64,000 nt of DNA, from positions 9,143-73,142 of the forward strand of contig DATKQX010000052.1 of assembly GCA_035532495.1 (NCBI GenBank). The letters are read 5' to 3'. Position 1 is the stretch's first letter. Each line of letters begins with the position of its first letter. The DNA comes from Candidatus Saccharimonadales bacterium. GTDB lineage: Bacteria > Chloroflexota > Dormibacteria > Aeolococcales > Aeolococcaceae. Below are positions 1,698 to 36,422 of this stretch, in pieces. A model generated the notes under the pieces. It saw nothing but the letters and a program-made list of their open reading frames with translations, ran no database searches and was not told where the DNA came from. The position numbers and the translations under genes were made by a program.

Positions 1698-1731
1698 AGT
1701 CCCCGCTCGCGGTGATGACCCAGGGATTCGT

Positions 1732-5190: not shown

Positions 5191-6629
5191 CCTCTGATCC
5201 TCTTGAGATTCATCAACATTGCGGGGACGACGAGAATGAAGAGGATCACCGCGAGCGCGGCCGCGAGTCCCTGCCCATTGTTGCTTGCGAAATTGTTGTA
5301 GATGTCGAGCGCGATCGTGCTCGCGCCGCTCTGCGATGACGGTGTCGCCATGTTCAAGATGATGTCGAAGATCTTCAGGACGTTGATGAGCATGGTGACG
5401 AAGACCACGACGAGCACGGGGCGGAGCATCGGCACGGTGACGCGGCGCAACGTCTGCCATTCCGACGCACCGTCGATCTGCGCCGCCTCGAGCACCTCGC
5501 GGTTGAGTGCCGCAAGTCCCGCACCGATCACCACCATCGCGAACCCTGCCCAGATCCAGAGGTACGCGATGATCATCGCGATGTCGACGATCGGCAGGCT
5601 CAGGACCGCCTGCAGCGTCGGGTTCAGCGAGCCCGTTGGAGTCAGCGATTGCGTGCCGAGAAAGAAGATGCCGTTGAAGCCGGCCTGGAAGTTGTTGGCC
5701 GTGATCTGGATGCGATAAATGCTCGACCCGACGCCGGCAAACGAGAAGCTCCCATCCGACGCGGTCGTTGTCGTCGCCCCGACGGAACCGTCAGCGCTCA
5801 GCAGGGCAACATGCATCCCCGCAATTCCGTCCTCGTCGGGGAACACCTGACCGCGTGCCGTCGGGTGCGACGGCGAGAAATCCCGCCATACCAGACCTGT
5901 GATCGCACCGCTTGATGAGGACGGTACCTGCGCGGTCGTCGCATGGTTCGTCTGGAGCACGGCCGGGCTGATCCCCGTGAGCCCGAGCTCGATGGTGCCG
6001 CCCGCGGTCACCGTTGATTTGCTTTGCAGCGTTCCTCCGGGTCCGGACTCCACGCCGGTGGCAGCAAGCGCGCCCACACTCTCCCCCGCCGACGTGTCGA
6101 CGGGATACAGACCCGGAGGATTGACCCCGTTGGCGACGCCCTGCACCGCAGCGTTCACCACGCCGGTGTGCGGATCGTTGAAGAAGATCGAGGCCCACGT
6201 GAGCCCGGCGGCGGTCGCGCTGAACACGAGTGGCATGAACACGATGGTCTTGAACGCCGTCCCCCAGCGAATCCGCTCCGTGAGCACGGCGAACACCAAC
6301 CCGAAGAACGTGACCAGGAAGGGGAAGACCACCACCCACACGACGTTGTTCTTGAGAGAGACGATGATGTCCGTCGTCGAGAAGATCGCCTTGTAGTTGC
6401 CGAGCGCGATGAATCGGGTGCCGGAGCCGTCGAACAGACTACGGACAATCGTCGCAATGAACGGGTAGACGACGATGATCAATAACCAGAGCGCGCCCGG
6501 CAGCAGGAAGAGAAGTGAACCGAGATGGCTCTTCCAGCCACCGCCACCGACCGGCGCACCAATCGTCGGAACGACGTCCTGCTTCGGCTCAACCGGCAGC
6601 GCGTCCGCTGTCGGATCGGCAACGCTCAC
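5187..6629 (-). CDS. carbohydrate ABC transporter permease (MalF-like) with large extracytoplasmic insert
   Basis: GTG at 6629 is preceded by GAGGGA. EAA loop VLEAAQIDGASEWQTLRRVTVPML. About 190 extra residues lie between TM3 and TM4. Confidence 0.85.
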   Translation of the reverse strand: MSVADPTADALPVEPKQDVVPTIGAPVGGGGWKSHLGSLLFLLPGALWLLIIVVYPFIATIVRSLFDGSGTRFIALGNYKAIFSTTDIIVSLKNNVVWVVVFPFLVTFFGLVFAVLTERIRWGTAFKTIVFMPLVFSATAAGLTWASIFFNDPHTGVVNAAVQGVANGVNPPGLYPVDTSAGESVGALAATGVESGPGGTLQSKSTVTAGGTIELGLTGISPAVLQTNHATTAQVPSSSSGAITGLVWRDFSPSHPTARGQVFPDEDGIAGMHVALLSADGSVGATTTTASDGSFSFAGVGSSIYRIQITANNFQAGFNGIFFLGTQSLTPTGSLNPTLQAVLSLPIVDIAMIIAYLWIWAGFAMVVIGAGLAALNREVLEAAQIDGASEWQTLRRVTVPMLRPVLVVVFVTMLINVLKIFDIILNMATPSSQSGASTIALDIYNNFASNNGQGLAAALAVILFILVVPAMLMNLKRIRG

Positions 6630-6872
6630 GCGACATCCCTCAGCACAGTTGGCCCGAGATGCTAGTCCGCTCGACGGTCGAAGGCAACACCGGAGATTTG
6701 TCGGCGTACCGATCTCGCGGCCCGGAGGGCGTTGTTGAGGGGTATCCCCCGATAGGGTGAGATGCAATTCGATCGGTTGCGTTTCGGGTGCATGTGGAGT
6801 ACATAGGTCTCGACGCGGTGATTTGTAAGGAGAGCGGGTCCAATGGGTTCGCCTCTCCGTAGAGGAGAACGT

Positions 6873-8258
6873 ATGACGCAGGTCAGCACCCTGGGAAAGC
6901 TGGCAGTCGTGACCGCCGGAGTGCTCGGAATTGCGACGGCGTGCGGCTCGACCAGCACGACGCCGCCCGCGAGCTCGAGCGGCTCATCGAGCAACAAGAT
7001 CGGCGGCTCGGTCACCGTCTGGGGCGAGTGGACAGCACAGGAGCAGCAGAATTTCCTCGCGGCACTCGTGCCGTTCCATACGCAAACGGGCATCACCGTC
7101 AACTATTCAGGGAAAGGCAGCAACATGGATACCGCGCTGAATTCCGCGGTTTCCGGCGGTTCGCCTCCGGATGTGGCGTTCGTCCCTGATCCCGGTACGC
7201 TCAACAGCCTTGCCAAGGCTGGAAAAGTCAAGGATCTGACCAGTCTGCTCGGCAACTTGACGTCCAACTTCGGCGCCGCGTGGAACACGCTCGCGAGCTA
7301 CAGCGGCAAGCAGTACGGCGTGTGGTTCAAAGGTGCGAACAAGAACACCATCTGGTACAACCCCGCGCTCTTCACGGAGGCGGGCATCAGCACGCCGCCG
7401 ACCACGTGGGAGCAGTTGCTCACCGACGCAGGGCAGTTGAAGGCCGCCGGTGTCACGCCATTCTCACTGTGCACCGACGTCGGCTGGCCGGTCGCGGACT
7501 TCTGGCAGAACGTCTACCTGAAGACCGCGGGTGCGGATAGCTACAACAAGCTCGCGACGCATGCGCTCAAGTGGAGCGACCCAACGGTGACGACGGCGTT
7601 CACCACGCTCGGTCAGCTGTTCAGCAACACGTCGTACCTCGCCGGTGGCCTGAACGGCGCGCTCGCCAACTCCTACCCGCTCTGCGTCGACAAGGTCTTC
7701 CCCAAGGCCGGATCGCAGCCACAGGCGGCGATGGTCTTCGAGGGCGACTTCGTGGTCAGTGAGATCACCGGGAACTCGAAAAGCTACGCAGCTGGAACGA
7801 CTGGAACCGGCGGCGCCGCGTGCACCACCGACGCGAGCAAGACCCCGTGCTACGACTTCTTCCCGTTCCCGGCACCATCCGCGGACAGCGCCAACCAGAA
7901 TGCGGTTCAGGGTGCAGGCGATGTCGGGATGATGCTCAATGCCACTCCGCAGGCCCAGGCGCTGATGAAGTACATCGCGGGACCTGAGCCCGGATCGATC
8001 TGGGCAAATGCCGGTGGGTTTGCATCACCGAACAACAAGGTGACCGGCGACTCGTACCCGGACGCAGTGTCGAAGGCGGACGCGGCGGCACTCGTCAACG
8101 CGACCAGCTTCGTCTTCAGCCTCGACGATCTGCAGGGAAGCTGGGAGCCGATGATGTGGGCCGACCTGCTCAACTTCCTGAAGAACCCGACGAGTTCGAA
8201 CATCGCCACCGTCGAGGCGACCATGGATCAGCAGGCGACAGCGGCCCTGGGCCACTAG
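6873..8258 (+). CDS. ABC transporter substrate-binding lipoprotein (family 1 solute-binding protein)
   Basis: ATG 6873 follows GAGGAG. Signal peptide plus lipobox GIATAC, then an S/T-rich linker and an SBP-like body. Divergent from the permease operon. Confidence 0.85.
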   Translation: MTQVSTLGKLAVVTAGVLGIATACGSTSTTPPASSSGSSSNKIGGSVTVWGEWTAQEQQNFLAALVPFHTQTGITVNYSGKGSNMDTALNSAVSGGSPPDVAFVPDPGTLNSLAKAGKVKDLTSLLGNLTSNFGAAWNTLASYSGKQYGVWFKGANKNTIWYNPALFTEAGISTPPTTWEQLLTDAGQLKAAGVTPFSLCTDVGWPVADFWQNVYLKTAGADSYNKLATHALKWSDPTVTTAFTTLGQLFSNTSYLAGGLNGALANSYPLCVDKVFPKAGSQPQAAMVFEGDFVVSEITGNSKSYAAGTTGTGGAACTTDASKTPCYDFFPFPAPSADSANQNAVQGAGDVGMMLNATPQAQALMKYIAGPEPGSIWANAGGFASPNNKVTGDSYPDAVSKADAAALVNATSFVFSLDDLQGSWEPMMWADLLNFLKNPTSSNIATVEATMDQQATAALGH

Positions 8259-8370: not shown

Positions 8371-9147
8371 ATGCCATCCGTGAAGCGTCCGTCGCTGGCA
8401 CTCTTCGTGAGCGAGCCCGGTCGGGCGCTGGCCGACTATGGCGCGATGCTCGCGACGTCGCCGGTGTTTCTGTTCGCGCCGCGAGGCGATGGCCATCCGG
8501 TGCTCGTCATGCCGGGACTGCTTGCTGAGGACGCGTCCACGGCGACACTCCGCTGGTACCTGCGGTCGATCGGGTACGAGGTCGGCGGCTGGCTTCTCGG
8601 TCGTAACCTCGGTCCGACGCCCGAGATCATGAGCGGTATGACGGCGCGTCTCGATGAGCTGCACGCGGCGGCCGGCAGGACGGTCAGCCTCATCGGGTGG
8701 AGCCTCGGCGGCATCTTCGCGCGTGAGCTGGCACGTTCCCGGCCGCAACTCGTCCGCCAGGTCATCACCCTCGGCAGCCCATTCGGACTCGACAACGTGC
8801 ATCACAGCCGCGCGGGCGGCGTCTACCAGCGGCTGACCGGCCAGCACGTCAGCGCCGGCTCGCTGCCGCCGCGCCGACACCTACGCCGCTCGATACCCGT
8901 CCCGACGACCGCCGTCTACTCGCGACTCGATGGCGTGGTGCCGTGGGAGGCGTGCATCAACACCCCTGGCCCGCGCTGCGAGAACGTGGGCGTCTACGGC
9001 AGTCACCTCGGACTGGGCCACAACCCGGCAGTGCTCTGGGTGCTGGCGGACCGCCTCGCCCAGGCCGAAGGTGCGTGGCAACCATTCCGTCCCCCGGCGA
9101 TTGCCCGTCATCTCTTCCCTGAGCGAGGCGAGGCCGAAGCGGCCTGA
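8371..9147 (+). CDS. alpha/beta-fold hydrolase
   Basis: ORF 8371..9147. Nucleophile elbow GWSLGG, with a later ITLGSPF segment. Confidence 0.7.
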   Translation: MPSVKRPSLALFVSEPGRALADYGAMLATSPVFLFAPRGDGHPVLVMPGLLAEDASTATLRWYLRSIGYEVGGWLLGRNLGPTPEIMSGMTARLDELHAAAGRTVSLIGWSLGGIFARELARSRPQLVRQVITLGSPFGLDNVHHSRAGGVYQRLTGQHVSAGSLPPRRHLRRSIPVPTTAVYSRLDGVVPWEACINTPGPRCENVGVYGSHLGLGHNPAVLWVLADRLAQAEGAWQPFRPPAIARHLFPERGEAEAA

Positions 9148-10592
9148 CGTGACCGCCGCGGAGTCGACCGCTTCCGGGAGCGCGATGCCCGGCGCGGCCT
9201 GCCGCCTGCAGCGGCGACGAGTTCGCGCATCCCCGACTCGATGCCGTCCCGGAGCACGTCGATGTCGGCGACGGTGTCGTAGTCACCTGTGATCCCGAAG
9301 AACAGCCTGCCGCAGTACGAGAAGATCGCGATGCTGACGCGCACGCTGCCCATGATCGGCACATACGGATACGAGTAGACCATCGGTCGTCCGGCGACGT
9401 AGAGCGTGTACTGCGGCCCGGGGACATTGGTCGTGACCGTCTGCAACGCGCGTTGCGGCGTTCGAGCGGCGAGACGCGCTCCGAGCGCCAGCAGCATCGG
9501 CGGCGCGAACCCGGCAAGACGCACGAGCGCGTCGCCGGCGACCGCCTGCTTCGAATCCTTGAGGGTCGACAGCTGCGCCGAGATCGATGCGAGACGCTCG
9601 GCCGGATCCTCGATGGACACGGGCAGGCCCGGGAACATCCCGGATACGCGATTGTTGAACGTCCCACGCTCATGCTCCGCGCGGACGGACACCGGCACCA
9701 GCGTGCGCACCACGCGGTTCGAGAGATCCTCGCCGCGATGCTCGAGCAGTGCCCGGAAACCTGCGGTGATGGACGCGAGCACGACATCGTTGACGGTGCC
9801 CCCAAGCGCGTCGCGCACGAGCTTGACGTCATCGAGAGTCGCCTCTGCCCAGCTCCAGCGCCGATGCGGACCGATCGGACCGTTGAGCGAGGTGGCGGAT
9901 CTCTTCCCCCAGTCCGCCAGAGAGCGGACCAGCGTGGCGGCCTCGCCGATCCGGGTCCGAGGACCGGCGGTGAGCTGCAGGACATCGGCGACGTTGCGCA
10001 GGCTGCCAAGCGGGTCCGCAACGGTCCGGAGTGCGGCCGCCGCTGCGAGACGCAACGCGCCGGGTTCGGAATCCGGGAACCACTCGTCGGGTGGCTCGAG
10101 ATCCGGCGCTTCCTGGCTCGCGTCGAACATCACGGTGAGCAGGTCGGTGGCGGCGACGCCGTCGACCATGCAGTGATGCACCTTCGAGATGATCGCCCAG
10201 CGACCGTCTTCGAGCCCCTCCACCATCCAGAACTCCCAGAGCGGCTTGCTCCGGTCAAGGACTTGCGCAAAGACACGGCCCGCCAGGTTGCGCAGTTCGT
10301 CGCGACCGCCGGGCGGCGGAACTGCCGTGTGGCGGATGTGGTACAGGATCTGGAAGTGCGAGTCGTCGACCCAGACCGGCCGTCCCAGACCGCCGGGCGC
10401 GAAGCGGACCTTCTGGCGGTACCGCGGCACCAGCGGCAATTTCGCGGCAATGAGCCGGACGAGGTCCCCGTATGCCGGGGCCGGCCCGTCGAGCACGGCA
10501 ACGGATCCGATGTGCATCGGGTTGTTCCCGTTCTCGACGTCGAGGAACATCGCGTCCTGCACGCTCATCACGTCCACGTCGTGTCCCTCCAT
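9108..10592 (-). CDS. wax ester synthase/diacylglycerol acyltransferase (WS/DGAT)
   Basis: Active-site motif HHCMVDGVAATDL (HHxxxDG) and N-terminal DAMFLDVE..NPMHIG. Start is ATG 10592 or 10568. The 3' end overlaps the convergent hydrolase gene by 40 nt. Confidence 0.85.
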   Translation of the reverse strand: MEGHDVDVMSVQDAMFLDVENGNNPMHIGSVAVLDGPAPAYGDLVRLIAAKLPLVPRYRQKVRFAPGGLGRPVWVDDSHFQILYHIRHTAVPPPGGRDELRNLAGRVFAQVLDRSKPLWEFWMVEGLEDGRWAIISKVHHCMVDGVAATDLLTVMFDASQEAPDLEPPDEWFPDSEPGALRLAAAAALRTVADPLGSLRNVADVLQLTAGPRTRIGEAATLVRSLADWGKRSATSLNGPIGPHRRWSWAEATLDDVKLVRDALGGTVNDVVLASITAGFRALLEHRGEDLSNRVVRTLVPVSVRAEHERGTFNNRVSGMFPGLPVSIEDPAERLASISAQLSTLKDSKQAVAGDALVRLAGFAPPMLLALGARLAARTPQRALQTVTTNVPGPQYTLYVAGRPMVYSYPYVPIMGSVRVSIAIFSYCGRLFFGITGDYDTVADIDVLRDGIESGMRELVAAAGGRPRRASRSRKRSTPRRSRQAASASPRSGKR

Positions 10593-26395: not shown

Positions 26396-27853
26396 TCAGG
26401 GGACCACGTCATACATGGCGTCGAGCGCGGCGGCGAACAGGAGATCCAGGGCCTCGTTGCCCTCGGGCGAACCACCGAGGCCGTACAGCGCACCGCTCGT
26501 GGCCGGCCCCAGGCCAGGCGTCTTCGCGTATGCCACGGCGCCGCGGAGGTCCTCGAGGAACGCATCGGCGACCCCATCCGCGGTATTCGGCCGAGTCACG
26601 CAGAAGTGCAGCCCGGGCGGCAGCTGGAGGGCGTTGAGCCGCCAGCCCTTGCTGATGAGGTGGTCGTTGACGTGATAGATGTCGATGCCGCGGCCGCGGA
26701 ACGCGATGATGAACGTGGGATCGCCGAATACCTCCAATTCGGGGATCGCGGCGATGCCCTCGAGGATGGTTGCCGCAGTCTCGAAGATCCGCTCGGCGAT
26801 CTCCATGTAGCCCTGCTCGCCAAGGCTGAGCATCGCCGCCCACGCTGCAGCAACCACGCCGCCGGACCGGCTCCCCGACAATCCCGGCGACATGTAGATG
26901 CCGCCCGGCCAGTCGGGGTAGCTGAAGTACTGGTAGTGGCGCAGCGCGCTGTTCCGGTAGAGAAGCACCGAGGTGCCTTTGAGCGCGTATCCGAATTTGT
27001 GGGTGTCGGCGGAGATGCTCGTGACGCCGGGCAGCCGGAAGTCGAAGGTCGGGACCGGGTAGCCGAGCTTCTCGGCCCAGGGGAGGATGAATCCGCCCAT
27101 GCAGCCGTCGACGTGGAGGCCGAGGTCATACTCGAGCGCCAGGGCCGACAGCTCGTCGATCGGATCGATGAGCCCGTGCGGGTAATTGCCGGCGGAGCCG
27201 ACGATCGCCACGGTGTTCGACGTCACGTGGTCGCGCATCCACTCGACGTCGGCGCGCCAGTCCTCGCCCACGGGCGCCTTGATCAGCTTGATCCCAAGCA
27301 TGTACGCAGCTTTCTGAAGCGCCACGTGCGCCGTCACCGGGATGATGACCTCGGGCTCGGTGATCTCCTTCTCGATCCTGCCGCGCTCGCGGTACACGAG
27401 CATCGGGTTGATCAGGCTCTCGGTGCCGCCGAAGGTGACCACCCCACAGACCTCCTCGCCGGGGTGGTGCGACGGGATGGCCTCGCCGTGGAGCAGTGAC
27501 GCGGTCATCGCCACGATCTCGCCCTCGAGCTTGGTGGCGCTCGGGTACATGTCGCGCTGCAGGACATTGGCATGCGCGAAGAGCCCGTAGGCCTCGATCA
27601 GGAAGCGGTAGTGGTCGCGCCCACCGTGATAGATCGATCCCGAGACGCGCCCAGCATTCCCGATCCGGTCCTCCTCCTCCGCCATCGCGCCGAGCTCGGC
27701 AAGGATGCTCGCTCGGGAGCGGGGCTCCGTGGGGATTCGGTGGTGGGCCTCGAAACGGTCACGATACGGATGGAAGTCGATGAGACCTCCGAAGTCCTGG
27801 GAATCGTCAGCCAATGTGTGCGCCTCCTCGCGCAGAGGATTGTGGCGCGCCAC
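26396..27853 (-). CDS. PLP-dependent enzyme of the sphingosine-1-phosphate-lyase / group II decarboxylase family
   Basis: PLP-lysine motif SISADTHKFGYALKGTSVLLYR, matching the SPL pattern SxDxHKxGxxxKGxS. GTG 27853. Confidence 0.8.
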   Translation of the reverse strand: MARHNPLREEAHTLADDSQDFGGLIDFHPYRDRFEAHHRIPTEPRSRASILAELGAMAEEEDRIGNAGRVSGSIYHGGRDHYRFLIEAYGLFAHANVLQRDMYPSATKLEGEIVAMTASLLHGEAIPSHHPGEEVCGVVTFGGTESLINPMLVYRERGRIEKEITEPEVIIPVTAHVALQKAAYMLGIKLIKAPVGEDWRADVEWMRDHVTSNTVAIVGSAGNYPHGLIDPIDELSALALEYDLGLHVDGCMGGFILPWAEKLGYPVPTFDFRLPGVTSISADTHKFGYALKGTSVLLYRNSALRHYQYFSYPDWPGGIYMSPGLSGSRSGGVVAAAWAAMLSLGEQGYMEIAERIFETAATILEGIAAIPELEVFGDPTFIIAFRGRGIDIYHVNDHLISKGWRLNALQLPPGLHFCVTRPNTADGVADAFLEDLRGAVAYAKTPGLGPATSGALYGLGGSPEGNEALDLLFAAALDAMYDVVP

Positions 27854-27883
27854 CGCGTCGCGAGGCGTCTATGCTCGGCCGCG

Positions 27884-28900
27884 ATGGCTGATGACGTCGT
27901 GGTGGTCGAGGCATCGGGTCGCGACGTGCAGATCACCAACCCGGGAAAGGTCTACTTCAACGAGCGCGGCGACACCAAGCTCGACCTCGTCCGCTACTAC
28001 CAGTCCGTCGAGGAGCCGCTGCTCCGAGCCATGGGCGGCCGCCCCGTGCTGCTGCAGCGATTTCCCAACGGGGCGAGCGGTCCGTCGTTCTTCCAGAAGC
28101 GGGTGCCCGATACTCGACCCGACTGGCTCGAGACGACGATCGTGAGCACACCCAACGGCACGACGTCACGTGCGCTCGTCGCCGCCGACCTTGCCCACGT
28201 GCTCTGGGCGGTGAACATGGGCTGCCTCGGCTTCCACGTCTGGCCCTCGCTCGCCTCCGACCCCGAGCACGCCGACGAGCTCCGCATCGATCTCGACCCG
28301 AGCCCCGGTGTCACCTTCGCGATGGTGCAGGAGGCGGCGCGCGAGGTCCGCGCGCTCTTCGACGAGCTCGGCGTCGTGTGTCTGCCCAAGACCACCGGCA
28401 ACCGCGGCATCCACGTCTACGTCCGGCTGCAGCCGCGCTGGACGTCGTACGACGTGCGTTCCTCCGCTGTCGCGGTGGCGCGCGAGCTCGAACGCCGGCG
28501 TCCAGACCTCATCACCTGCGCGTGGTGGAAAGAGGAACGCGGCAGGCGAGTATTTGTCGACTTCAACCAGAACGCCCCGCACAAGACCATCTTCGGTGCG
28601 TGGTCGGCGCGGGCGAGGCCGGGGGCACAGGTGTCGACACCGTTCGCGTGGGAAGAGCTCGAGGGCATCGACCCCAACGTGCTCACCATCGTGACGGTGC
28701 CTCCACGGGTGGCACGCGACGGCGATCCGTGGATGGCGATGTCGACGGCACCGCAATCGCTCGAGCCCGTATACGCGCTGCACGAGCGGGACACCGCCGC
28801 GGGGCTCCCCGATGCGCCATGGCCGCCGCAGTACCCGAAGATGCCCGGCGAGCCGTCGCGGGTGGCGCCGAGCCGGGCGCGTAAATCCGAGGCGGACTGA
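27884..28900 (+). CDS. ligD: stand-alone LigD-type NHEJ polymerase/primase domain protein
   Basis: ATG 27884 within ORF 27572... ITNPGKVYF, LQRFPNG, DELRIDLDP, KTTGNRGIHVYV and VFVDFNQN match the LigD PolDom. No ligase or nuclease domain and no adjacent Ku gene. Confidence 0.85.
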   Translation: MADDVVVVEASGRDVQITNPGKVYFNERGDTKLDLVRYYQSVEEPLLRAMGGRPVLLQRFPNGASGPSFFQKRVPDTRPDWLETTIVSTPNGTTSRALVAADLAHVLWAVNMGCLGFHVWPSLASDPEHADELRIDLDPSPGVTFAMVQEAAREVRALFDELGVVCLPKTTGNRGIHVYVRLQPRWTSYDVRSSAVAVARELERRRPDLITCAWWKEERGRRVFVDFNQNAPHKTIFGAWSARARPGAQVSTPFAWEELEGIDPNVLTIVTVPPRVARDGDPWMAMSTAPQSLEPVYALHERDTAAGLPDAPWPPQYPKMPGEPSRVAPSRARKSEAD

Positions 28901-28943
28901 GGCATTTCGCGGTCAGCCCCTGCTGGGACGCTCGCGCCTGCAG

Positions 28944-29150
28944 TCATGGGGCAGCCCGCGGCCCCGATCGCGATTCCGCCGACACCGACGCGCTCAAGCG
29001 TTCCATGATGCGGAGAAGGTCAGCGCGACCACGGTCACTGAGGAGCGCGCGTCGTCGGGATCGGGCTCGCGCGCCACGAGCCCAGCCGCACTCATGCGAT
29101 CGAGCAGCCTGGACACCCCGGACGGCGCACATCGCCCAGCTCGGTCCCGC
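28944..29150 (-). pseudogene. decayed MarR-family regulator relic (at least 2 frameshifts, N-terminally truncated)
   Basis: MarR-like wHTH pieces are spread over three minus-strand frames: TELGDVRRPG / VSRLLDRMSAAGLVAREPDPD / RRALLSDRGRADLLRIMERL. No intact ORF. Confidence 0.4.
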
Positions 29151-29214
29151 GCGCAGCGCCTGGTTTCGCGACCCGGACGGCAACGTCCTGGGCCTGCGTC
29201 AGGCATAGGGGCGC

Positions 29215-29985
29215 TCAGTCGACCCGGCGGATCACCGCGCATGCCGCGGTGTCGCCGCCGTCGATGAACCAGACGGCCGTCGCCGGGTGACCCCGAGCGA
29301 TCGCAAGCTCCAGATCGGAGGTCAGGTCAAGCGGGCGGCGATACTCGAGAACCCCTCGCACCCGCCCGCCGATGGCCCCGCTGTCCGGGCCCGTTGCCAG
29401 TGCGCTCTCAAGTGCCGCCCAGTAGACCGCGTTGTTCGCGTGACCGAGGGTGTCGAGGTCGGACACCCGGATGGGCCAGCGAATCCGCATCGCCGCGGCC
29501 GCAGGCTCGGGTGGGAGTTCGAGCTTCGCCGACACCTTTCGTCCGAGCCCGGATGCGCCGTACAGATCGTCGAAGGCGGTCGGAAGGCGCGCCGGACGAG
29601 AGGTCACGCGATCGAGCAGCACCCAGATGCTCTCCGCCTCCGCGTGACCTCCGGCATCGCCGGTGATCGACGTGCGTCGTGCGGCCCAGTGCGATCCGGA
29701 CCCACTCGCCCAGGTGGCCAGGGATACGGCCCGATCAACGCTGAACGGCCGCTCGACCTGGATCACGGTGCGCCGGACGACCCAGGTGAGCAATTCGTCC
29801 TCAGCTCCCGCGTCCGCGACATCATCAGACGCGATGTCCTGCATATACCGTGCCAGGGCATCGAGCCGGAGACGGCCGTCGACTGCCACGTCGGCGAGCC
29901 GGATCGTGCGCCGCGAGCGAAAAACGCGACCGATGCGAGGCTCGGGGACGAGCGGCGATTCCATGACGGACGGCGCGCCGGCCAT
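29215..29985 (-). CDS. acyl-ACP thioesterase family protein (double hotdog)
   Basis: ORF 29215..30024. RLDALARYMQDIASDDV, a later second hotdog half and LDTLGHANNAVYWAALE. Start candidates are TTG 30024, ATG 29985 and ATG 29964. Confidence 0.75.
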   Translation of the reverse strand: MAGAPSVMESPLVPEPRIGRVFRSRRTIRLADVAVDGRLRLDALARYMQDIASDDVADAGAEDELLTWVVRRTVIQVERPFSVDRAVSLATWASGSGSHWAARRTSITGDAGGHAEAESIWVLLDRVTSRPARLPTAFDDLYGASGLGRKVSAKLELPPEPAAAAMRIRWPIRVSDLDTLGHANNAVYWAALESALATGPDSGAIGGRVRGVLEYRRPLDLTSDLELAIARGHPATAVWFIDGGDTAACAVIRRVD

Positions 29986-30079
29986 TGCTCGGATTGTGAC
30001 CGGAAGGTTTGTCGACTCGGACAATGGGGTAGGATGTCAGCATCACCTCAGTTCACGGGGTGCATCGCTCGTGGTCGTC

Positions 30080-30131
30080 ATTCCTTCTCGAACGGACGCG
30101 CTGCGTCTGTAACTTGCGTTCGAGAAGGAAT
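30080..30131 (+). promoter_or_regulatory. structured 5' leader of the cold-shock gene (15-bp perfect stem with nested hairpin)
   Basis: ATTCCTTCTCGAACG (30080..30094) pairs with CGTTCGAGAAGGAAT (30117..30131). The loop contains GACGC-GCT-GCGTC. The 3' arm ends 1 nt before the SD GGAGAG. Confidence 0.6.
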
Positions 30132-30144
30132 TGGAGAGACCAGA

Positions 30145-30345
30145 GTGACTGGTACCATCAAGAAGGTCGTCGCCGATCGCGGCTTCGGCTTCATTTCCGC
30201 TGAGGATGGACAGGAGTACTTCTTCCATCGCAGCGGCGTCGACAGTTCGTTGAACTTCGACACACTGGCCGCCGACGAGCGCGTGAGCTTTGAAGTGGAG
30301 CGCAGCGACAAGGGGCCCCGCGCCGCCCAGGTTCGCGCAGCCTAA
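30145..30345 (+). CDS. cspA: cold-shock protein (CspA family)
   Basis: GTG 30145 follows GGAGAG. The RNP1 motif RGFGFI and the 66-aa length match the CspA family; the RNP2 region FFH is a looser match. Confidence 0.9.
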   Translation: MTGTIKKVVADRGFGFISAEDGQEYFFHRSGVDSSLNFDTLAADERVSFEVERSDKGPRAAQVRAA

Positions 30346-30435: not shown

Positions 30436-30729
30436 ATGCCCCGTTACTCGCAGCTGGACTCGGCTCGTCTTCGCAGAGACCTGGGCCTTGCGCGTGCAAG
30501 GAAGATCATCGTCTACGCCGGGGTTGGGGCCGCGGGACTCACGACGACCATCGCACTCCTCGCCGCAGCGACCGCCCCGGGCCGGTCCACGGCGACGGGC
30601 TCCGCGACCACGCAGACGAATGCCGGTGGGCCGACGACCGGGGTGACATCTCCGGACTTCGTACCGCCGGGCAACCTTCCGCTTGCGGGCAACGGCGGCG
30701 TCCCCATCGCGGTGTCCGGCGGGTCCTGA
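30436..30729 (+). CDS. single-pass membrane protein, Thr/Gly/Pro-rich C-terminal tail predicted outside
   Basis: ATG 30436 within ORF 30361... Basic N-terminus (RLRRDLGLARARK), one TM (IIVYAGVGAAGLTTTIALLAAA), tail ending PIAVSGGS. Confidence 0.55.
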   Translation: MPRYSQLDSARLRRDLGLARARKIIVYAGVGAAGLTTTIALLAAATAPGRSTATGSATTQTNAGGPTTGVTSPDFVPPGNLPLAGNGGVPIAVSGGS

Positions 30730-30772
30730 TCCCGTCAGTCCAGTGATCGCGGCAGCTCTGGGGCCGACGCCC

Positions 30773-31768
30773 ATGTGGTACGCGACGCGCGCGAGCGGCT
30801 TCACAGCGCTTGTCCTCCTGAGCGCAACGGTTGCCATCGGTCTTGTGACGTCGATGCGCAGGAGTGGACGCGGATGGCCGAGGTTCGTCGTGCAGTCGGT
30901 CCACCGAGACCTGTCGCTGCTTGTCGTGCTCTTCCTGCTGGTGCACATCGTCACGTCCGTGCTTGATCCTTTCGCGAAGCTCTCGGTCCTTGACGCCGTC
31001 GTGCCATTCATCGCTTCCTACCGCCCACTCTGGCTCGGGCTCGGTGTGGTGAGCATTGAGTTGCTCATCGCGATCATCGCGACGAGCTTTGTGCGCCACC
31101 GCTTGAGCTGGCGGACGTGGCGCATCGTTCACCTGCTGGCGTACATCAGCTGGCCGATCGCTGTGATCCACGGCATCGGCACGGGAAGTGACACGAAATC
31201 GGCGTGGGCGCTCCTGCTGGTGACGGTCTGCGTGGCTGTCGTCATCGGCGCTCTCGTGTGGCGATTGACCCAGATCGGACCTCACTTCAAGGCGCTCGGA
31301 TGGCTCGGCATCGCCGCCGGGCTGACAGGGACCGCCGCCCTGATCGCCTGGATGGCGATCGGTCCACTGCAACCGGGCTGGGCGAAGGCCGCCGGCACGC
31401 CGGCCGACCTGCTCGCCGGGTCCTCGACCCGCGCGACGGGCTCCACGCCGGCGCCGATCCACGCCTTGACAGTCGGGCTCAATGACGCCGTCCGCGGATC
31501 GCTCGCACAGTCCCAGACAACCGTCACCGCCACCATGGTTGACACGCGCGATACGACGCTCAGTGTCGTGGTCCTCGCGAGGGCCGACGGCTCAGGACAG
31601 CTCTCGCTGTCGCAGGCCGGGACGTCGCTCTGCAACGCGCCTGTATCGGTCGGCACAAGTGCGATCACCGCCCAATGCGGAACGGTGCTCGTCAGCCTGC
31701 AACTGCAGTCCGACGGCACCGCGATCAACGGCACCATGACGACGCGCCGGGCCGCGGTGACACCCTGA
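30773..31768 (+). CDS. ferric-reductase-like (FRD) transmembrane protein with four conserved heme-ligand histidines and a C-terminal ~130-aa domain
   Basis: Six TMs, with H-x13-H in TM2 (VHRDLSLLVVLFLLVH) and H-x12-H in TM4 (VHLLAYISWPIAVIH). Start is ATG 30773 or GTG 30743. Confidence 0.75.
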   Translation: MWYATRASGFTALVLLSATVAIGLVTSMRRSGRGWPRFVVQSVHRDLSLLVVLFLLVHIVTSVLDPFAKLSVLDAVVPFIASYRPLWLGLGVVSIELLIAIIATSFVRHRLSWRTWRIVHLLAYISWPIAVIHGIGTGSDTKSAWALLLVTVCVAVVIGALVWRLTQIGPHFKALGWLGIAAGLTGTAALIAWMAIGPLQPGWAKAAGTPADLLAGSSTRATGSTPAPIHALTVGLNDAVRGSLAQSQTTVTATMVDTRDTTLSVVVLARADGSGQLSLSQAGTSLCNAPVSVGTSAITAQCGTVLVSLQLQSDGTAINGTMTTRRAAVTP

Positions 31769-33039
31769 TGCAGACGATCACCACGATGCAGCGATTGCTC
31801 CCGGACGCACGCACCCCGGAGAGTCTGGACGCGCACGTCGACGTGTTCGGACCGCGTCCGGTCGTCGATCCTCGCACACTGATCGAGGCTCTCGACGAGA
31901 GTGGGCTGCGTGGACGCGGAGGCGCGGGGTTCCCCACCGGGACCAAGTGGCGCGCCGTCATGCAGCACGCCAACGGTGCCGGGGCGGTCGTGATCGCGAA
32001 CGCCGCAGAGCGCGAACCGGCGAGCCACAAGGATCGAACGTTGATGTTGCTCCGGCCACATCTGGTGCTTGACGGACTCGAGCACGCCGCCGAGACACTC
32101 GGAGCGCGGCGCGCAATCGTCTACACCTCGCGTGCCGACGACGACATGCGCCGCACGCTCCAGGCGGCAATCACTGAACGCCGGCAGGTCGCGGACACGC
32201 GCGTCTTCATCGAGGTCGCAACGGGGCCGAATCGCTACGTCGCGGGCGAGGAGACCGCCCTCATCGCTCGCGTCTCAGGGCGCCTGGCGAAACCACGCGT
32301 CGTGCCTCCGCGCCCGTACGAGAACGGCGTCGACGGGATACCGACTCTCGTGCAGAACGTGGAAACCCTGGCACACGCGGCCCTCATCGCTCGTCGCGGA
32401 GCGAGTTGGTTCCGTTCGGTCGGCACCACTCGCACTCCTGGGACGGCATTGGTCTCGGTCACAGGTGCCGTGGCATCTCCGGGGGTGTTCGAGACTGATG
32501 CGACCGCCACGGTCGGCGACCTTGCCGGACGTGCCGGTGGGGTTATCGGCGAGCCGAGTGCAGTCATGATCGGTGGGTACTCCGGCCGCTGGGTCACCGC
32601 CGCCGCTGTGATGAACGTTCCAATCGACATCGATTCGCTTCGATCCGCAGGCGCCTCGCTCGGCGCCGGCATCCTCGCGTTCCTCCCAGTGAACGCTTGC
32701 GGCGTGGTTGAGACCGATCGGGTGCTGACCTACCTCGCGTCGGAGAGCGCGCGGCAGTGCGGCCCCTGCCACGTCGGACTCCCCGCGCTGGCCGACACGT
32801 TTCACCATGTTGCGACCGGTCGCGCCCGGCCGGCGGCGCTCGACACGCTCTTGCGATGGTCAGGCGACGTTCTCGGCCGCGGCGCGTGCCAGCATCCTGA
32901 CGGGGCGGCGCGTTTCCTCATGAGCGCCCTGCAGGTCTTCGGGGCGGATCTGCGCCACCACCTGCGTAACGGTGCGTGTCGCTATAGCGGCCAACCTCCG
33001 CTGCTGCCCATTCCCGAGTCCGAGGCCGGCTGGTGGTGA
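31768..33039 (+). CDS. NuoF-like (complex I 51-kDa subunit family) flavoprotein
   Basis: ATG 31768 overlaps the upstream TGA (TGATG). GLRGRGGAGFPTGTKW, YVAGEETALI, PTLVQNVET, and Fe-S region ESARQCGPCHVG. Confidence 0.85.
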   Translation: MQTITTMQRLLPDARTPESLDAHVDVFGPRPVVDPRTLIEALDESGLRGRGGAGFPTGTKWRAVMQHANGAGAVVIANAAEREPASHKDRTLMLLRPHLVLDGLEHAAETLGARRAIVYTSRADDDMRRTLQAAITERRQVADTRVFIEVATGPNRYVAGEETALIARVSGRLAKPRVVPPRPYENGVDGIPTLVQNVETLAHAALIARRGASWFRSVGTTRTPGTALVSVTGAVASPGVFETDATATVGDLAGRAGGVIGEPSAVMIGGYSGRWVTAAAVMNVPIDIDSLRSAGASLGAGILAFLPVNACGVVETDRVLTYLASESARQCGPCHVGLPALADTFHHVATGRARPAALDTLLRWSGDVLGRGACQHPDGAARFLMSALQVFGADLRHHLRNGACRYSGQPPLLPIPESEAGWW

Positions 33040-33275
33040 AGTTGCGCCTGAGCGTTGATCCGATCAAATGCAAGGCGCACGGCATGTGCGACGAGCTCAT
33101 CCCCGAACGCATCCGGATGGACGACTGGGGCTACCCCGTCATCGACCCACGCGCCGTGTCCCCGGAGCTAATCGACTTCGCTCGGCGAGCCGTCGGCGCG
33201 TGCCCTCGTGGCGCGCTGAGCATCGTCGCGATCGGTGACTCGGGTGCGCGAACCGTGCCAGACCACCCCGACTGA
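33033..33275 (+). CDS. small single-cluster ferredoxin (CxxHxxC...CP type)
   Basis: GTG 33033 overlaps the NuoF-like stop by 7 nt. CKAHGMC ... ACP gives three Cys ligands, as in actinobacterial 3Fe-4S ferredoxins. Confidence 0.75.
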   Translation: MVKLRLSVDPIKCKAHGMCDELIPERIRMDDWGYPVIDPRAVSPELIDFARRAVGACPRGALSIVAIGDSGARTVPDHPD

Positions 33276-34445
33276 CGTTCCGCCGCCCGGGACGTCTTCG
33301 ATCTCCCACCGCGCGTGGGTTGCTCCGACGATCGCGTTCGCGATCGCGAGACCGAGTCCGGCGCCGTCACCTTCATTCGTTCCGCGGTGAAACCGGTCGA
33401 AAATCCGGTCGCGGCGCTCTTTCGGGAAACCCGGACCAGTGTCCGTGACCAGGAGGCGCACGCGCTGCCGGTCACGCGCAACACCGACGCTGACCCGACC
33501 GCCCCGCGGCGTATACCGACACGCGTTGTCGAGCAGGACCCCGATGAGGCGATCGATGTACTCCGCCGGAGCGTCCACGAGCGCCGGGTCGGTGGGGTCC
33601 GCGACGTTGTCCAGGCGGATCCCCTGCCGGTCCGCAATCGCAACAAATCGACTGACGCTCACATCGACCGCTGTTGCGAGATCAACAGGCTCCGCAACAG
33701 GGTCGGGCGGCATCGAGTCGAATCGCGAGAGCCAGAGAAGGTCCTCGACGATCGTGCGCATGCGTCGCGTTTCCGCAGCGACACGATCGATCGTCTCGGC
33801 GCCTTTATCGCCCGAGCCAAGATGTGCAAGCGCGAGTGATGTCTCGGCCTCGATGACGGCAAGCGGCGTGCGCAGCTCGTGCGATGCGTCAGCGGTGAAC
33901 TCGAGCTGCCTGCGCCGAACGCGCTCGATTGGTCCGGCCGCCTGCCTCCCGACGACGAAAGCGCCGGCGAAGACGAGCACCAGGAGAATTGGGCCGATCA
34001 CCGCCTCGGTGACGAGGAGCGTGGTGAACGACGTCGACTCGGCCGAAAGGCTGATGGCACCGATCAGCCTTCCACCTTGAAAGGAGGCTCCCGCGATCAG
34101 CACGTCGCTGCCCGCAAGCGAGGTCTCGGCGGGCGCCGCTGCCGCCTTGGCACGCTCCGACAGCGCGGGAGCGCCGGGTGTCGACTGGACGACGTTCCCT
34201 GCATCGTCGAGCCGCCAGACGAGGAGTGGATCATCGAGGTCGGGCTCCAGGAGCGCGCGATCGCCGGACCCGGGGATGAGCTGATGCAACTCGGCCGTAA
34301 GGCGCCTCTCTGCGGACGCGCGCACTGTATGCGCCACGACGACGTCAACCGCGATGCAGAGCACCAGGATCAGTCCAGCGACGACGGCTGTCGCGAACAA
34401 CGCGGTACGCAGAGCATTCCGGGCGATACCGGAGCTCGCGCTCAC
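33168..34445 (-). CDS. sensor histidine kinase (2 TM, HAMP, HisKA, HATPase_c)
   Basis: GTG 34445 overlaps the response-regulator stop (GTGA). H-box ADASHELRTPLAVIE, G-boxes DTGPGFP and GAGLGLAIA. Confidence 0.85.
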   Translation of the reverse strand: MSASSGIARNALRTALFATAVVAGLILVLCIAVDVVVAHTVRASAERRLTAELHQLIPGSGDRALLEPDLDDPLLVWRLDDAGNVVQSTPGAPALSERAKAAAAPAETSLAGSDVLIAGASFQGGRLIGAISLSAESTSFTTLLVTEAVIGPILLVLVFAGAFVVGRQAAGPIERVRRRQLEFTADASHELRTPLAVIEAETSLALAHLGSGDKGAETIDRVAAETRRMRTIVEDLLWLSRFDSMPPDPVAEPVDLATAVDVSVSRFVAIADRQGIRLDNVADPTDPALVDAPAEYIDRLIGVLLDNACRYTPRGGRVSVGVARDRQRVRLLVTDTGPGFPKERRDRIFDRFHRGTNEGDGAGLGLAIANAIVGATHARWEIEDVPGGGTSVGVVWHGSRTRVTDRDDAQRATRARADGSPSEVD

Positions 34446-35110
34446 CGCTCCACGAGCCGGTATCCGACGCGGCGGACGGCCTCGATGCGGACTCCGGCGT
34501 CGACGATCTTGGCCCGCGCCCGTGCGATATGGACATCGATGTTGTTCGAACCGATGGCGTCGAGTGAGTCGGGCCACGCGTGATTGGCGATGGCATCGCG
34601 GCGAACCACCGCCGGGCTGCGCCGCGCGAGGAGCTCGACGATCGCGTACTCGGTCGGCGTCAGAGCAATGGACCTGCCGTTCACCGACGCCGAGACTGCG
34701 GCGGGATCGATGATCAGCGCACCGATGCGCAACTGCACGCCGAGCGCCGCGACCGGTCGCCGTAGCAGCGCACGCAGGCGTGCGAGCAACTCGTCGAAAT
34801 CGAAGGGTTTGACGAGATAGTCGTCGCACCCTGCATCGAGACCTCGTATCCGGTCTGGCGGCGTGTCGCGCGCAGTCAGCATCAGCACGGGCACGGAGAG
34901 ACCACGTGCACGCAGCGACGCGACGACTTCGATCCCATCACCTCCCGGCATCCGCCAGTCGATGACGGCGATGTCATATGCCTCGCGAGTGAGGGACGCA
35001 TACGCGTCGTCGCCACGTGACACGGCGTCCACTGCGTACCCCGCCTGATTCAGTCCCCGCATGAGCACGTCGCGGAGCTGGGCGTCATCCTCGGCGACGA
35101 GCAGGCGCAT
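34442..35110 (-). CDS. OmpR/PhoB-family response regulator
   Basis: Receiver domain (MRLLVAEDD...DIAVIDWRMPGGDG...KPF) plus a winged-helix output domain. Confidence 0.9.
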   Translation of the reverse strand: MRLLVAEDDAQLRDVLMRGLNQAGYAVDAVSRGDDAYASLTREAYDIAVIDWRMPGGDGIEVVASLRARGLSVPVLMLTARDTPPDRIRGLDAGCDDYLVKPFDFDELLARLRALLRRPVAALGVQLRIGALIIDPAAVSASVNGRSIALTPTEYAIVELLARRSPAVVRRDAIANHAWPDSLDAIGSNNIDVHIARARAKIVDAGVRIEAVRRVGYRLVER

Positions 35111-35241: not shown

Positions 35242-35754
35242 GTGACGACGAATATCGCACTTGTCGATCGTGCGCTCGCGCTTGCACGCGTGGATTGGTC
35301 GCCATCGCCGCGCCAGCCCCGGCCCGAGTGGGTCGTCGTGGCAACCGTGCTGGCGATCGCCGGCTCGCTGCTGGCGGATGCTCTCCTCGTGAAGGTCGGG
35401 GTAGCGATATTCCAGTCGACAAATGGATATCCACATTTTCTTTTCGGTGAGTACGCGAAGCTCACCGTCATCGGCGTCGTGGTTGGGTGCGCCGGCTGGC
35501 CGATCGTCACAAGAATCAGTTCCGCGCCACGCTGGCTCTTCAGCCGCCTCGCGGTGCTCATCTCGCTTGTCCTGTTGCTCCCCGATGTCTGGTTGCTGCT
35601 GAGGCATCAGCCGCCGCTTGCAGTGCTCGTGTTGATGAGCATGCACGTCGCTGTCGCCCTCATCACCTACCACGTTGTCGTCCGGGTCGCTCCGGCTCGG
35701 GACCCCCGCAGGCCCCACCGGGCCGCGTTTGCGCGTCTCGACGAGGAAATGTAG
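35242..35754 (+). CDS. hypothetical 4-TM membrane protein
   Basis: ORF 35242..35754 (GTG start). Four hydrophobic segments. Family not confidently recognised (possibly DUF6069-like). Confidence 0.55.
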   Translation: MTTNIALVDRALALARVDWSPSPRQPRPEWVVVATVLAIAGSLLADALLVKVGVAIFQSTNGYPHFLFGEYAKLTVIGVVVGCAGWPIVTRISSAPRWLFSRLAVLISLVLLLPDVWLLLRHQPPLAVLVLMSMHVAVALITYHVVVRVAPARDPRRPHRAAFARLDEEM

Positions 35755-35798
35755 CCCACGTCCGTCAGGCGCGCGCGCCTCGGGTAGAGTCGAACGCG

Positions 35799-36422
35799 AT
35801 GCACGCCGCCGCGATCGGATTCGGGCTCGGTTTCTTCGTGGCCCTGCAACTCGGCCCGATGTCGCTCTTTCTCATTCGCTCGACGCTGCGCAGCGGATGG
35901 AGGGTGGGCCTCGCGATCGGCGCGGGCATCGCCTGCATCGACGGGCTGTACGCCGCCGCAGGCGCGGGTGGCGCCACGCCCCTCCTCAACATCCAGCCAG
36001 TGCGTCTGACGCTCGGACTCATCGGCGCCGCGGTCCTGATCTGGCTCGGCGCGTGCACGCTGTACAGTGCCGTCCGCGTGCGCGTCGGCGGTGAGACGCC
36101 GTTCGAGACGTCTACACCGAGGCGAGCATTTCTCACTGCGCTTGGTGGCACCGCGTCGAACCCCTCCACCATCGTTTCCTGGGGAGCCATGTTCGCCGCC
36201 GCCAGCACCGCCGGACTCGTGCACACCACGAGTGCCGCGGTCGTGCTCGTCGCCGGCGTCGCGATCGGCAGTCTGACGTGGGTGACGATGCTGGCCACCG
36301 GCGTCGCGCTCGCGCGACGCTCGATGAGCGTGCGCGCGGTCCGCGTCACCGACGGAGTCGCGGGTGCCGCGCTCGTCGGGTTCGGCGGCGTGCTCGCGTA
36401 CACCACGATCCACGAGCACTGA
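35799..36422 (+). CDS. LysE/RhtB-family amino-acid exporter
   Basis: ATG 35799 within ORF 35487... Size, TM pattern and the ASNPSTIVSW motif are typical of LysE-type translocators. Confidence 0.75.
   Translation: MHAAAIGFGLGFFVALQLGPMSLFLIRSTLRSGWRVGLAIGAGIACIDGLYAAAGAGGATPLLNIQPVRLTLGLIGAAVLIWLGACTLYSAVRVRVGGETPFETSTPRRAFLTALGGTASNPSTIVSWGAMFAAASTAGLVHTTSAAVVLVAGVAIGSLTWVTMLATGVALARRSMSVRAVRVTDGVAGAALVGFGGVLAYTTIHEH

Follow-up and report, generated by a model that had tools for sequence, protein, structure and literature searches.

How can a ferric-reductase-type membrane protein that carries no dehydrogenase domain of its own be supplied with electrons from cytoplasmic NAD(P)H, and where would it deliver them? 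The question is raised by a four-gene locus at positions 30436-33275 of a 64,000-nucleotide stretch of DNA, here called the window (positions 9,143 to 73,142 of the forward strand of contig DATKQX010000052.1, GenBank assembly GCA_035532495.1, deposited as a Candidatus Saccharimonadales bacterium). The four genes are coupled, lie on the + strand and encode, in this order, a small single-pass protein (gene 1, g1), a ferric-reductase-domain membrane protein (gene 2, FRD), a flavoprotein related to the NuoF subunit of complex I (gene 3, NuoF-like) and a ferredoxin (gene 4). A preliminary description of this DNA had proposed that they form a chain running from NAD(P)H through FMN, Fe-S and ferredoxin to two b-haems. 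Given the conservation of the unit and of its motifs, this chain stands as the most economical reading, with a direction of flow suggested by redox logic and by analogy with NOX. As to what lies beyond the haems, we lean slightly towards an electron-exporting module that draws on NAD(P)H and belongs to the MsrQ-like, flavinylation-associated class, in which a flavin would be carried on the tail of g1.

The conservation of the gene set carries the first part of this answer. In the window, g1 (97 residues) occupies 30436..30729, the FRD 30743..31768, the NuoF-like protein (423 residues) 31768..33039 and the ferredoxin (80 residues) 33033..33275. The overlaps reported earlier can both be read in the sequence: TGATG at 31766-31770 joins the FRD stop to the NuoF-like start, and the seven nucleotides GTGGTGA at 33033-33039 hold the GTG start of the ferredoxin and the TGA stop of the NuoF-like gene. 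G+C content at third codon positions is ~0.8 for all four genes, with g1 (0.80) resembling its neighbors. The FRD likely starts at GTG 30743, 13 nt past the g1 stop (341 residues), or at ATG 30773 (331 residues), rather than at TTG 30683, which gives the longest open reading frame (ORF); FRD homologues are 325-340 residues long, and many open with a conserved xxAAxGPTP extension (VIAAALGPTP in the window). A pattern scan in which each GTDB species was represented by a single genome yielded 80 orthologous loci (labeled below with L-numbers, for example, L001) from Dormibacterota, Chloroflexota and Actinomycetota, the last represented by Solirubrobacterales, Streptosporangiaceae, Acidimicrobiia and Gaiellaceae. 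A NuoF-like gene lies directly 3' of the FRD gene on the same strand in every one of them, and a ferredoxin match comes next in 76, three of the gaps being contig edges and one (L056) unexplained. Across the three phyla, genes within the operon are usually overlapping or closely spaced. An order that recurs in 80 species-level loci and three phyla is far beyond chance, and it is close to certain that the FRD, the NuoF-like protein and the ferredoxin function as one unit.

The lineage is not the one first expected. Actinobacteria had been proposed, but the window belongs to Candidatus Dormibacterota, whose metagenome-assembled genomes (MAGs) hold the closest FRD homologues (52-91% identity); the system nonetheless occurs in Actinomycetota. 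Two loci, L005 and L022, come from MAGs labeled 'Candidatus Acidiferrales' and 'Candidatus Saccharimonadales'. Their operons are 60-81% identical to those of Dormibacterota, and the labels look like misassignments or bin contamination. Apparent gene fusions were also considered and set aside. A NuoF-like/ferredoxin fusion in L085 (8479-9855) is an assembly frameshift artefact and not Rosetta-stone evidence, and the FRD/NuoF-like fusions in L009 and L041 (FRD ORFs of 755-756 residues) are out of frame and reflect frameshifts in long-read assemblies.

At the membrane, the FRD matches Ferric_reduct (PF01794) with 39.9 bits against a cut-off of 28, and Actinomycetota orthologues pass as well; NCBIfam holds no family for the FRD, the ferredoxin or g1. 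The six transmembrane helices described earlier include H-x13-H in helix 2 (H44/H58) and H-x12-H in helix 4 (H120/H133, numbering of the 331-residue form), the ligand codons lying within 30902..31171 (H44, 30902-30904; H58, 30944-30946; H120, 31130-31132; H133, 31169-31171). All four haem histidines are invariant in the 80 orthologous loci. Loops after helices 1, 3 and 5 carry on average 9.7 Lys and Arg residues over the 80 FRDs, compared with 3.7 in the opposite short loops; this bias predicts a C-terminus outside the cell, with H44/H120 near the cytoplasm and H58/H133 near the outside, as in NOX. Pfam finds neither PF08022, PF08030 nor PF00175 in the window FRD and its orthologues, and a tblastn probe for an FNR-type domain matched nothing in the loci, in agreement with the earlier claim that the fused FAD/NADPH dehydrogenase domain is missing. 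Judged by its sequence, then, the FRD is a NOX-type bis-haem core without a fused dehydrogenase, and is predicted to bind two haems. The best PDB matches of its AlphaFold2 models in Foldseek are SpNOX (probability 0.98-0.99) and STEAP2 (probability 1.0).

The two cytoplasmic proteins supply plausible donors for this core. The NuoF-like protein matches Complex1_51K (132.7 bits) and NADH_4Fe-4S (PF10589, 60.5 bits), and the gene found in all 80 loci is of the PF10589 type. It aligns with complex I NuoF over its full length (best PDB match Mycobacterium smegmatis 8e9g_F, E = 5e-59) and falls below every NuoF equivalog cut-off in NCBIfam (254.6 versus 558.65 bits). The FMN/NADH motifs are conserved, with GRGGAGFPTG at residue 49, as previously noted, and GEETAL. 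In the canonical C-x2-C-x2-C...C motif, the first Cys is replaced by Ala, and five other Cys (C311, C331, C334, C374 and C404) are invariant in 76 sequences, so that the predicted Fe-S site is rewired in a family-specific manner. No NuoE or NuoG is encoded nearby in the window or in the annotated loci. The ferredoxin matches Fer4_15 (PF13459) with 34.8 bits, completing the four Pfam families named in the preliminary description, and its CxxHxxC...CP pattern is indeed present: C13-x2-H16-x2-C19 and C57-P are kept in 75-77 of 77 sequences. In actinobacterial ferredoxins this three-Cys pattern is that of [3Fe-4S] proteins, and the window protein would by its motif be of the same type.

The second part of the answer, the possible carrier on the outer side, depends on g1. 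The window protein has a basic N-terminal region (+7/-2), one hydrophobic segment rich in A, G and T, a conserved PG[RH] and a 48-residue tail, rich in P, S, T, G, A and Q, that ends ...PIAVSGGS*. Neither Pfam nor NCBIfam has a family for it, and its database homologues are all annotated 'hypothetical', with no domains. The family shares this plan: an RDxGLxRxRR-like N-region (+6 to +8) is followed by an uncharged A/G/T-rich segment of 21-26 residues, PG[RH] and a disordered tail of 31-120 residues that is 70-90% P/S/T/G/A/Q, contains a conserved P-x-Q-x-P stretch and ends in [AVT]-[VI]-[ST]-G-[GA]-S. The earlier description of a single-pass partner with its tail outside agrees with the positive-inside rule (charge of +6 to +8 before the hydrophobic segment, compared with ~+1 after it); what it missed is the likely role of g1 as a flavin carrier. 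The last residues recall the sites at which ApbE attaches FMN. ApbE recognizes D-x-x-[S/T]-G-A-[S/T] and links FMN to the final residue of that motif; a peptide of seven residues is enough, placement at protein termini is best, and changing the Asp to Ala has a minor effect (PMC12052999). Compared with a typical AISGAT, the AVSGGS of g1 matches by residue class at five of six positions. The VSGGS codons are at 30712..30726 (+), and the predicted FMN acceptor would be the last residue, S97. No other protein of the cluster carries a flavinylation motif.

This ending is a property of the family. In 77 of 81 non-duplicate loci, ApbE, or the FRD where there is no ApbE, is preceded within 400 nt by an ORF ending in [ST]G[AG]S (SGGS in 64, SGAS in 10, TGGS in two and TGAS in one); of the four exceptions, three are loci that are truncated. 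Among ~19,500 other ORFs of the same DNA, 14 end in this way (~0.07%). A g1 profile searched against 1.84 billion representatives recovered at least 174 clusters at 50% identity; of the 148 representatives that were new, 111 carry the motif at their very end and in 28 it is followed by one to three extra residues (SGGSR, SGGSH), together 94%. This figure is partly circular since the profile includes the motif, which makes up no more than five of the 97 positions, however. Three of these members (L085, L086 and L087) were examined individually and again lie beside ApbE, FRD, NuoF-like and ferredoxin genes.

Genomic linkage ties the motif to the transferase. Roughly half of the orthologous loci, namely most of those from Actinomycetota and Chloroflexota together with the deep Dormibacterota, encode ApbE (PF02424) between g1 and the FRD; in the window's clade, tblastn finds none at this position. 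In a deep Dormibacterota relative (L003), ApbE overlaps the FRD start. At least 34 loci, besides the three examined individually, have g1 as the gene directly preceding ApbE, and SGGS tails adjoin ApbE in 23 loci. Moreover, among 31 species of the window's clade that have no adjacent ApbE, GGS is invariant and [ST]GGS universal in g1 tails whose middle part drifts, which argues that the motif is still used. The cluster ApbE has no signal peptide, its Pfam domain starting at residue 5-7, and is probably cytoplasmic. Signal-less ApbE genes, ~59% identical to those in the operons, also occur elsewhere in Dormibacteria-type contigs, beside a YceI gene that has no motif. In these ApbE-YceI pairs (L088 3621-5357, L089 791-2527 and L090 10001-11746), an ApbE of 319-321 residues is followed by a membrane-anchored YceI-domain protein. 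Such an orphan ApbE may act as the g1 transferase in trans where the FRD operon has none, although this is a lead only. One of the same contigs (L090) also holds a canonical MsrQ-like cluster at 5440-8064, with an FRD fused to FAD/NAD domains, an FMN_bind protein and a short ApbE; its FMN_bind protein has GGAT instead of SGAT, a natural variation of the motif. Altogether, g1 is a good candidate for an ApbE substrate and probably a tethered flavin carrier, and the window operon appears to belong by descent to the MsrQ-like flavinylation system, though no ApbE is encoded in its 64 kb.

If these elements are joined, the following course of events can be proposed. The NuoF-like protein would oxidize NAD(P)H at its FMN in the cytoplasm and hand on the electrons one at a time, by way of its altered Fe-S cluster, to the small [3Fe-4S] ferredoxin, which would reduce the inner haem b of the FRD (H44/H120). 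After crossing to the outer haem (H58/H133), the electron would be taken up at the outer face by an FMN bound through a phosphoester to the C-terminal Ser of g1. This FMN would have been attached by ApbE, encoded outside the operon in the window's lineage. Anchored by its N-terminal hydrophobic segment, g1 would let its 48-residue tail swing the flavin between the outer face of the FRD and an acceptor, with the beta domain at the FRD C-terminus serving, where present, as a dock. The likeliest final acceptor would be Fe(III), another metal or an oxidant, and expression would be controlled by an adjacent two-component system. In its strongest form, the proposal makes g1 the first member of a new class of ApbE substrate, a ribosomally made, anchored disordered leash with FMN on its C-terminal Ser and no folded flavin domain, loaded in the cytoplasm by a signal-less ApbE prior to export and able to reach acceptors tens of nanometres away, within the envelope or past it. 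NADH-driven extracellular electron transfer that bypasses quinones would thereby be open to Dormibacterota, Chloroflexota and many Actinomycetota. This strongest form we put forward tentatively, as somewhat short of probable. Our confidence in a flavin leash varies with the share of the mechanism that the claim takes in, from that tentative level to a slight preference.

Several observations weigh against this proposal. In the 64-kb window, no ApbE was found by tblastn or with a hidden Markov model built from 120 ApbE sequences and run over six frames (best E = 0.18). The 16-kb flanks likewise hold none in ~43 loci of its clade, and flavinylation in the window's own genome is putative. Most g1 tails end in SGGS, not the canonical SGAS/T, and have no Asp at position -6. 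With a cytoplasmic ApbE and a tail predicted outside, g1 would have to be modified and then exported. Modification before export is conceivable, as g1 is so short that synthesis of its tail is complete before a translocon can be engaged by the hydrophobic segment. Two consecutive Arg residues stand ahead of this segment in 55 of 77 loci; the window protein has RK there, and in distant members the Arg residues are spaced. Because the twin-arginine, though common, is not kept in those distant members, Tat export was rejected as a firm assignment and is retained as a possibility. The transmembrane part of the AlphaFold2 model of the FRD is of low confidence (predicted local distance difference test, pLDDT, ~60-75). 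Finally, no terminal reductase or acceptor gene is conserved across the loci.

The alternative that fares best keeps the same wire and supposes that, with ApbE lost from the operon, g1 is left unflavinylated in this clade, as a structural or assembly subunit. The outer haem would then reduce the acceptor directly, as in NOX, which convert O2 to superoxide, or in Fre/FRO, which reduce chelated Fe(III). This alternative accommodates the absence of ApbE from the window and from the flanks of its clade, the ability of NOX-type FRDs to work with no cofactor on the outer side, and the rank of SpNOX as closest fold match of the FRD. It leaves unexplained why [ST]GGS stays invariant in the 31 ApbE-less species as the rest of the tail drifts, and related signal-less ApbE genes do occur away from FRD operons in Dormibacteria-type contigs. 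An unflavinylated g1 is unlikely on balance, yet a serious contender.

A different objection concerns the side of the membrane on which a flavinylated tail would lie. Were it cytoplasmic, the tethered flavin would shuttle between the NuoF-like protein or ferredoxin and the inner face of the FRD, as a covalent analogue of the FMN used by Fre and MsrQ. The charge bias of g1 predicts the opposite orientation, and long, variable tails rich in P, S, T, G and A are typical of envelope-spanning linkers. Moreover, the FRD keeps both haem sites, and the NuoF-like protein and ferredoxin already provide a flavin and one-electron carriers. The ApbE proteins of the clusters do not, however, have signal peptides, cytoplasmic ApbE acting on cytoplasmic targets is known (PMC12052999), and MsrQ uses FMN at the cytoplasmic face together with Fre (PMC12525009). 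Weighing both sides, a cytoplasmic tail seems distinctly improbable.

It could also be supposed that the FRD is a true MsrQ, the donor to a periplasmic MsrP-type molybdoenzyme that repairs oxidized methionines. The Joint Genome Institute (JGI) names homologues MsrQ/YedZ, and the domain superfamily is shared; this name is imprecise, because a haem ligand has been lost from MsrQ and STEAP, which contain a single haem together with a flavin, whereas all four His are invariant here. No Oxidored_molyb gene is adjacent, with weak matches ~8 kb away in two of the 80 loci, and this identity is very improbable. That the NuoF-like protein and ferredoxin belong to an unrelated soluble dehydrogenase and are incidental neighbors is hardly credible: such modules do serve hydrogenases, formate dehydrogenases (FDH) and Nfn, but across 80 loci of three phyla their order never changes and they stay coupled to the FRD gene, and no NuoE, NuoG, hydrogenase or FDH subunit is found in the window or annotated loci.

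If, as we prefer, the flavin is on an outside tail of g1, outward-facing parts of the FRD may serve it as a dock. The ~130-residue Cys-pair domain of the preliminary description is indeed predicted to lie outside. It is really a ~38-residue linker followed by a 92-residue, eight-stranded beta domain (31475..31750, +; pLDDT ~90) with the Cys pair C287/C302, and it is not a required redox module, because the beta domain is missing in ~20 of the 80 orthologues, which end soon after helix 6. The Cys pair itself is confined to versions from Dormibacterota and Chloroflexota. Foldseek gave no significant structural relative of the beta domain (best E 0.03-0.09, to FABP-like, VapB and TiME barrels). 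We considered and rejected the idea that this region is a diverged FMN_bind domain bearing a flavinylation site of its own, as Pfam gives no match there and no [ST]GA[ST] is conserved; the domain's absence from ~20 orthologues and the lack of a significant PDB relative undercut that idea further. At most, the beta domain can be an optional dock. The outer face of the FRD is better conserved (W2/Y3/R6, D65, Y83/R84/P85, G138/D140 and a G197-P-L-x2-G-W-A-x3-G-T-P signature) and is the better candidate.

How does this module compare with known systems? The closest is the NuoF-like subtype of the MsrQ-like flavinylation clusters, which are defined by PF01794 with ApbE or FMN_bind; 31 of them hold a NuoF-like protein and not a fused NAD-binding domain, and NAD(P)H was proposed as their cytosolic donor (Meheust et al. 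2021, eLife, PMC8238504). The likeness lies in a six-helix bis-haem PF01794 protein with ApbE and NuoF-like (PF10589) partners. The earlier statement that no characterized system has this composition is accordingly correct: none has been characterized, and a literature search found no later paper on the FRD/ApbE/NuoF-like combination. The composition itself is not unprecedented, having already been catalogued (Meheust et al. 2021). That description expects an FMN_bind domain protein as the flavinylated partner, whereas no FMN_bind domain is found in the window or loci and its place would be taken by the unannotated, disordered g1 with its C-terminal motif. Nor does it describe an invariant ferredoxin, a rewired Fe-S site in NuoF, an ApbE without signal peptide or linkage to a two-component system. 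What appears to be new is the proposed g1 'flavin leash', set in an architecture that is catalogued and uncharacterized.

Other parallels each cover a part of the module. MsrPQ of E. coli with Fre, a 'two-component NOX-like system' (Juillan-Binard et al. 2017; FEBS J 2025, PMC12525009), likewise has an FRD-superfamily protein that, having no fused dehydrogenase, receives its electrons in trans from a cytosolic NAD(P)H oxidoreductase. However, MsrQ holds one haem and FMN, and Fre is a small flavin reductase, compared here with two predicted haems, a complex-I-type flavoprotein and ferredoxin, and no MsrP. NOX, SpNOX and Fre/FRO share the H-x13-H / H-x12-H bis-haem core and its orientation. In these enzymes, a cytoplasmic C-terminal FAD/NADPH domain is fused to that core; the window FRD has none, does not have helix 1 of the NOX core, and by an extra sixth helix would place its C-terminus outside, leading to the beta domain. 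Flavin-based extracellular electron transfer in Listeria (Ndh2, EetA/B, PplA, FmnB) also takes electrons from NADH to an ApbE-flavinylated, tethered outside protein, but by a route through quinone and EetA/B and with PplA carrying folded FMN_bind domains, instead of a haem wire and, as proposed here, a flavin on an unfolded tail. With NuoF (Nqo1/NDUFV1), the window protein shares homology at the level of 35-45% identity over the FMN, NADH and Fe-S regions; it differs in scoring below the equivalog cut-offs, in the replacement of the first N3 Cys by Ala, in the extra invariant C311 and C404 and in having no NuoE/NuoG. Finally, the engineered 'flavin-tag' (Tong et al. 2021; reviewed in PMC12052999) demonstrates that a short terminal ApbE-motif peptide suffices for covalent FMN. 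That tag is artificial and reads DxxSGAT; g1, with [AV][VI][ST]G[GA]S and no Asp, would be its natural counterpart.

Next to the operon lies a convergent two-component pair, as described earlier. A sensor histidine kinase (33168..34445, -; 425 residues; HisKA and HATPase_c in Pfam) has two transmembrane helices flanking an outside segment of ~110 residues, and its GTG start overlaps the stop of an OmpR-family response regulator (34442..35110, -; 222 residues; Response_reg and Trans_reg_C in Pfam). The ferredoxin (+) and kinase (-) genes overlap by 108 nt (33168-33275; likewise in L001, 8393-8500), and the shared DNA encodes the non-conserved C-terminal tails of both proteins. A kinase/regulator pair occurs within 8 kb in ~61-63 of 77 loci, in varying arrangements. 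In Dormibacterota and Chloroflexota it lies downstream and is convergent with the operon; Solirubrobacterales have it upstream on the operon's own strand, and a Streptosporangiaceae-like group has it upstream on the other strand. The pair is probably the operon regulator. A single conserved sensor across phyla was considered and rejected, since the sensor part of the kinase is homologous within Dormibacterota only. In a Solirubrobacterales locus (L052, 3253-5013, -), a receiver-GGDEF-EAL gene lies between regulator and kinase upstream of g1, which hints at a cyclic di-GMP link in that order.

Neighboring genes also bear on the possible acceptor. Nramp metal-transporter genes lie within 8 kb in 10 loci (L087, L045, L046, L050, L054, L060, L065, L067, L078 and L079), and they recur in an actinobacterial clade with short FRDs and TSGAS tails. 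In L087, a same-strand block encodes the response regulator, kinase, g1, ApbE, FRD, NuoF-like protein, ferredoxin and a 667-residue Kelch-repeat beta-propeller protein (8536-10539, +, coupled after the ferredoxin), with the divergent Nramp gene adjoining at 1051-2238 (-); Kelch homologues also occur in L058 and L077. VIT1 has been recorded in 153 MsrQ-like clusters (Meheust et al. 2021, PMC8238504). On these grounds, the module might reduce metals for their uptake, which is a sensible conjecture and nothing firmer.

The wider surroundings show no evident tie to the operon upstream. There, a PLP-dependent decarboxylase (-), a LigD Prim-Pol (+), an acyl-ACP thioesterase (-) and a cold-shock protein (+, 30139-30345) are encoded at 26396-30345 of the window. 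The order is kept in L001, a 1.97-Mb contig that shares the window's neighborhood on both flanks (PLP decarboxylase, LigD Prim-Pol, acyl-ACP thioesterase and cold-shock protein upstream; the two-component pair, DUF6069, LysE and an M20 peptidase downstream). Past the two-component genes of the window, at 35242-36422, a DUF6069 membrane protein and a LysE-family exporter are encoded (a cluster of 26 loci); these neighbors are found throughout the Dormibacterota clade and not in other phyla. Scans of the region for Rfam families, tRNAs, promoters and terminators gave nothing relevant.

What would the module mean for the organisms that encode it? Even if the flavin hypothesis fails, the conserved three-gene wire is widespread, uncharacterized and experimentally tractable. 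If the wire works as proposed, a complex-I-type flavoprotein would feed a NOX-type cytochrome through a ferredoxin, offering a simple split model for how NOX-like haem wires can be fed. If g1 is indeed flavinylated, protein flavinylation would be possible without a folded FMN-binding domain, with a five-residue C-terminal tag becoming a natural electron carrier. Some ApbE substrates are still unidentified (Meheust et al. 2021, PMC8238504), and g1 would account for some of the remaining orphan ApbE genes noted in that survey. Together, the four proteins would then form a complete, quinone-independent route from cytoplasmic NAD(P)H to the cell exterior, and NADH-driven extracellular electron transfer would extend to abundant, mostly uncultured soil phyla (Dormibacterota, Solirubrobacterales, Acidimicrobiia and Chloroflexota).

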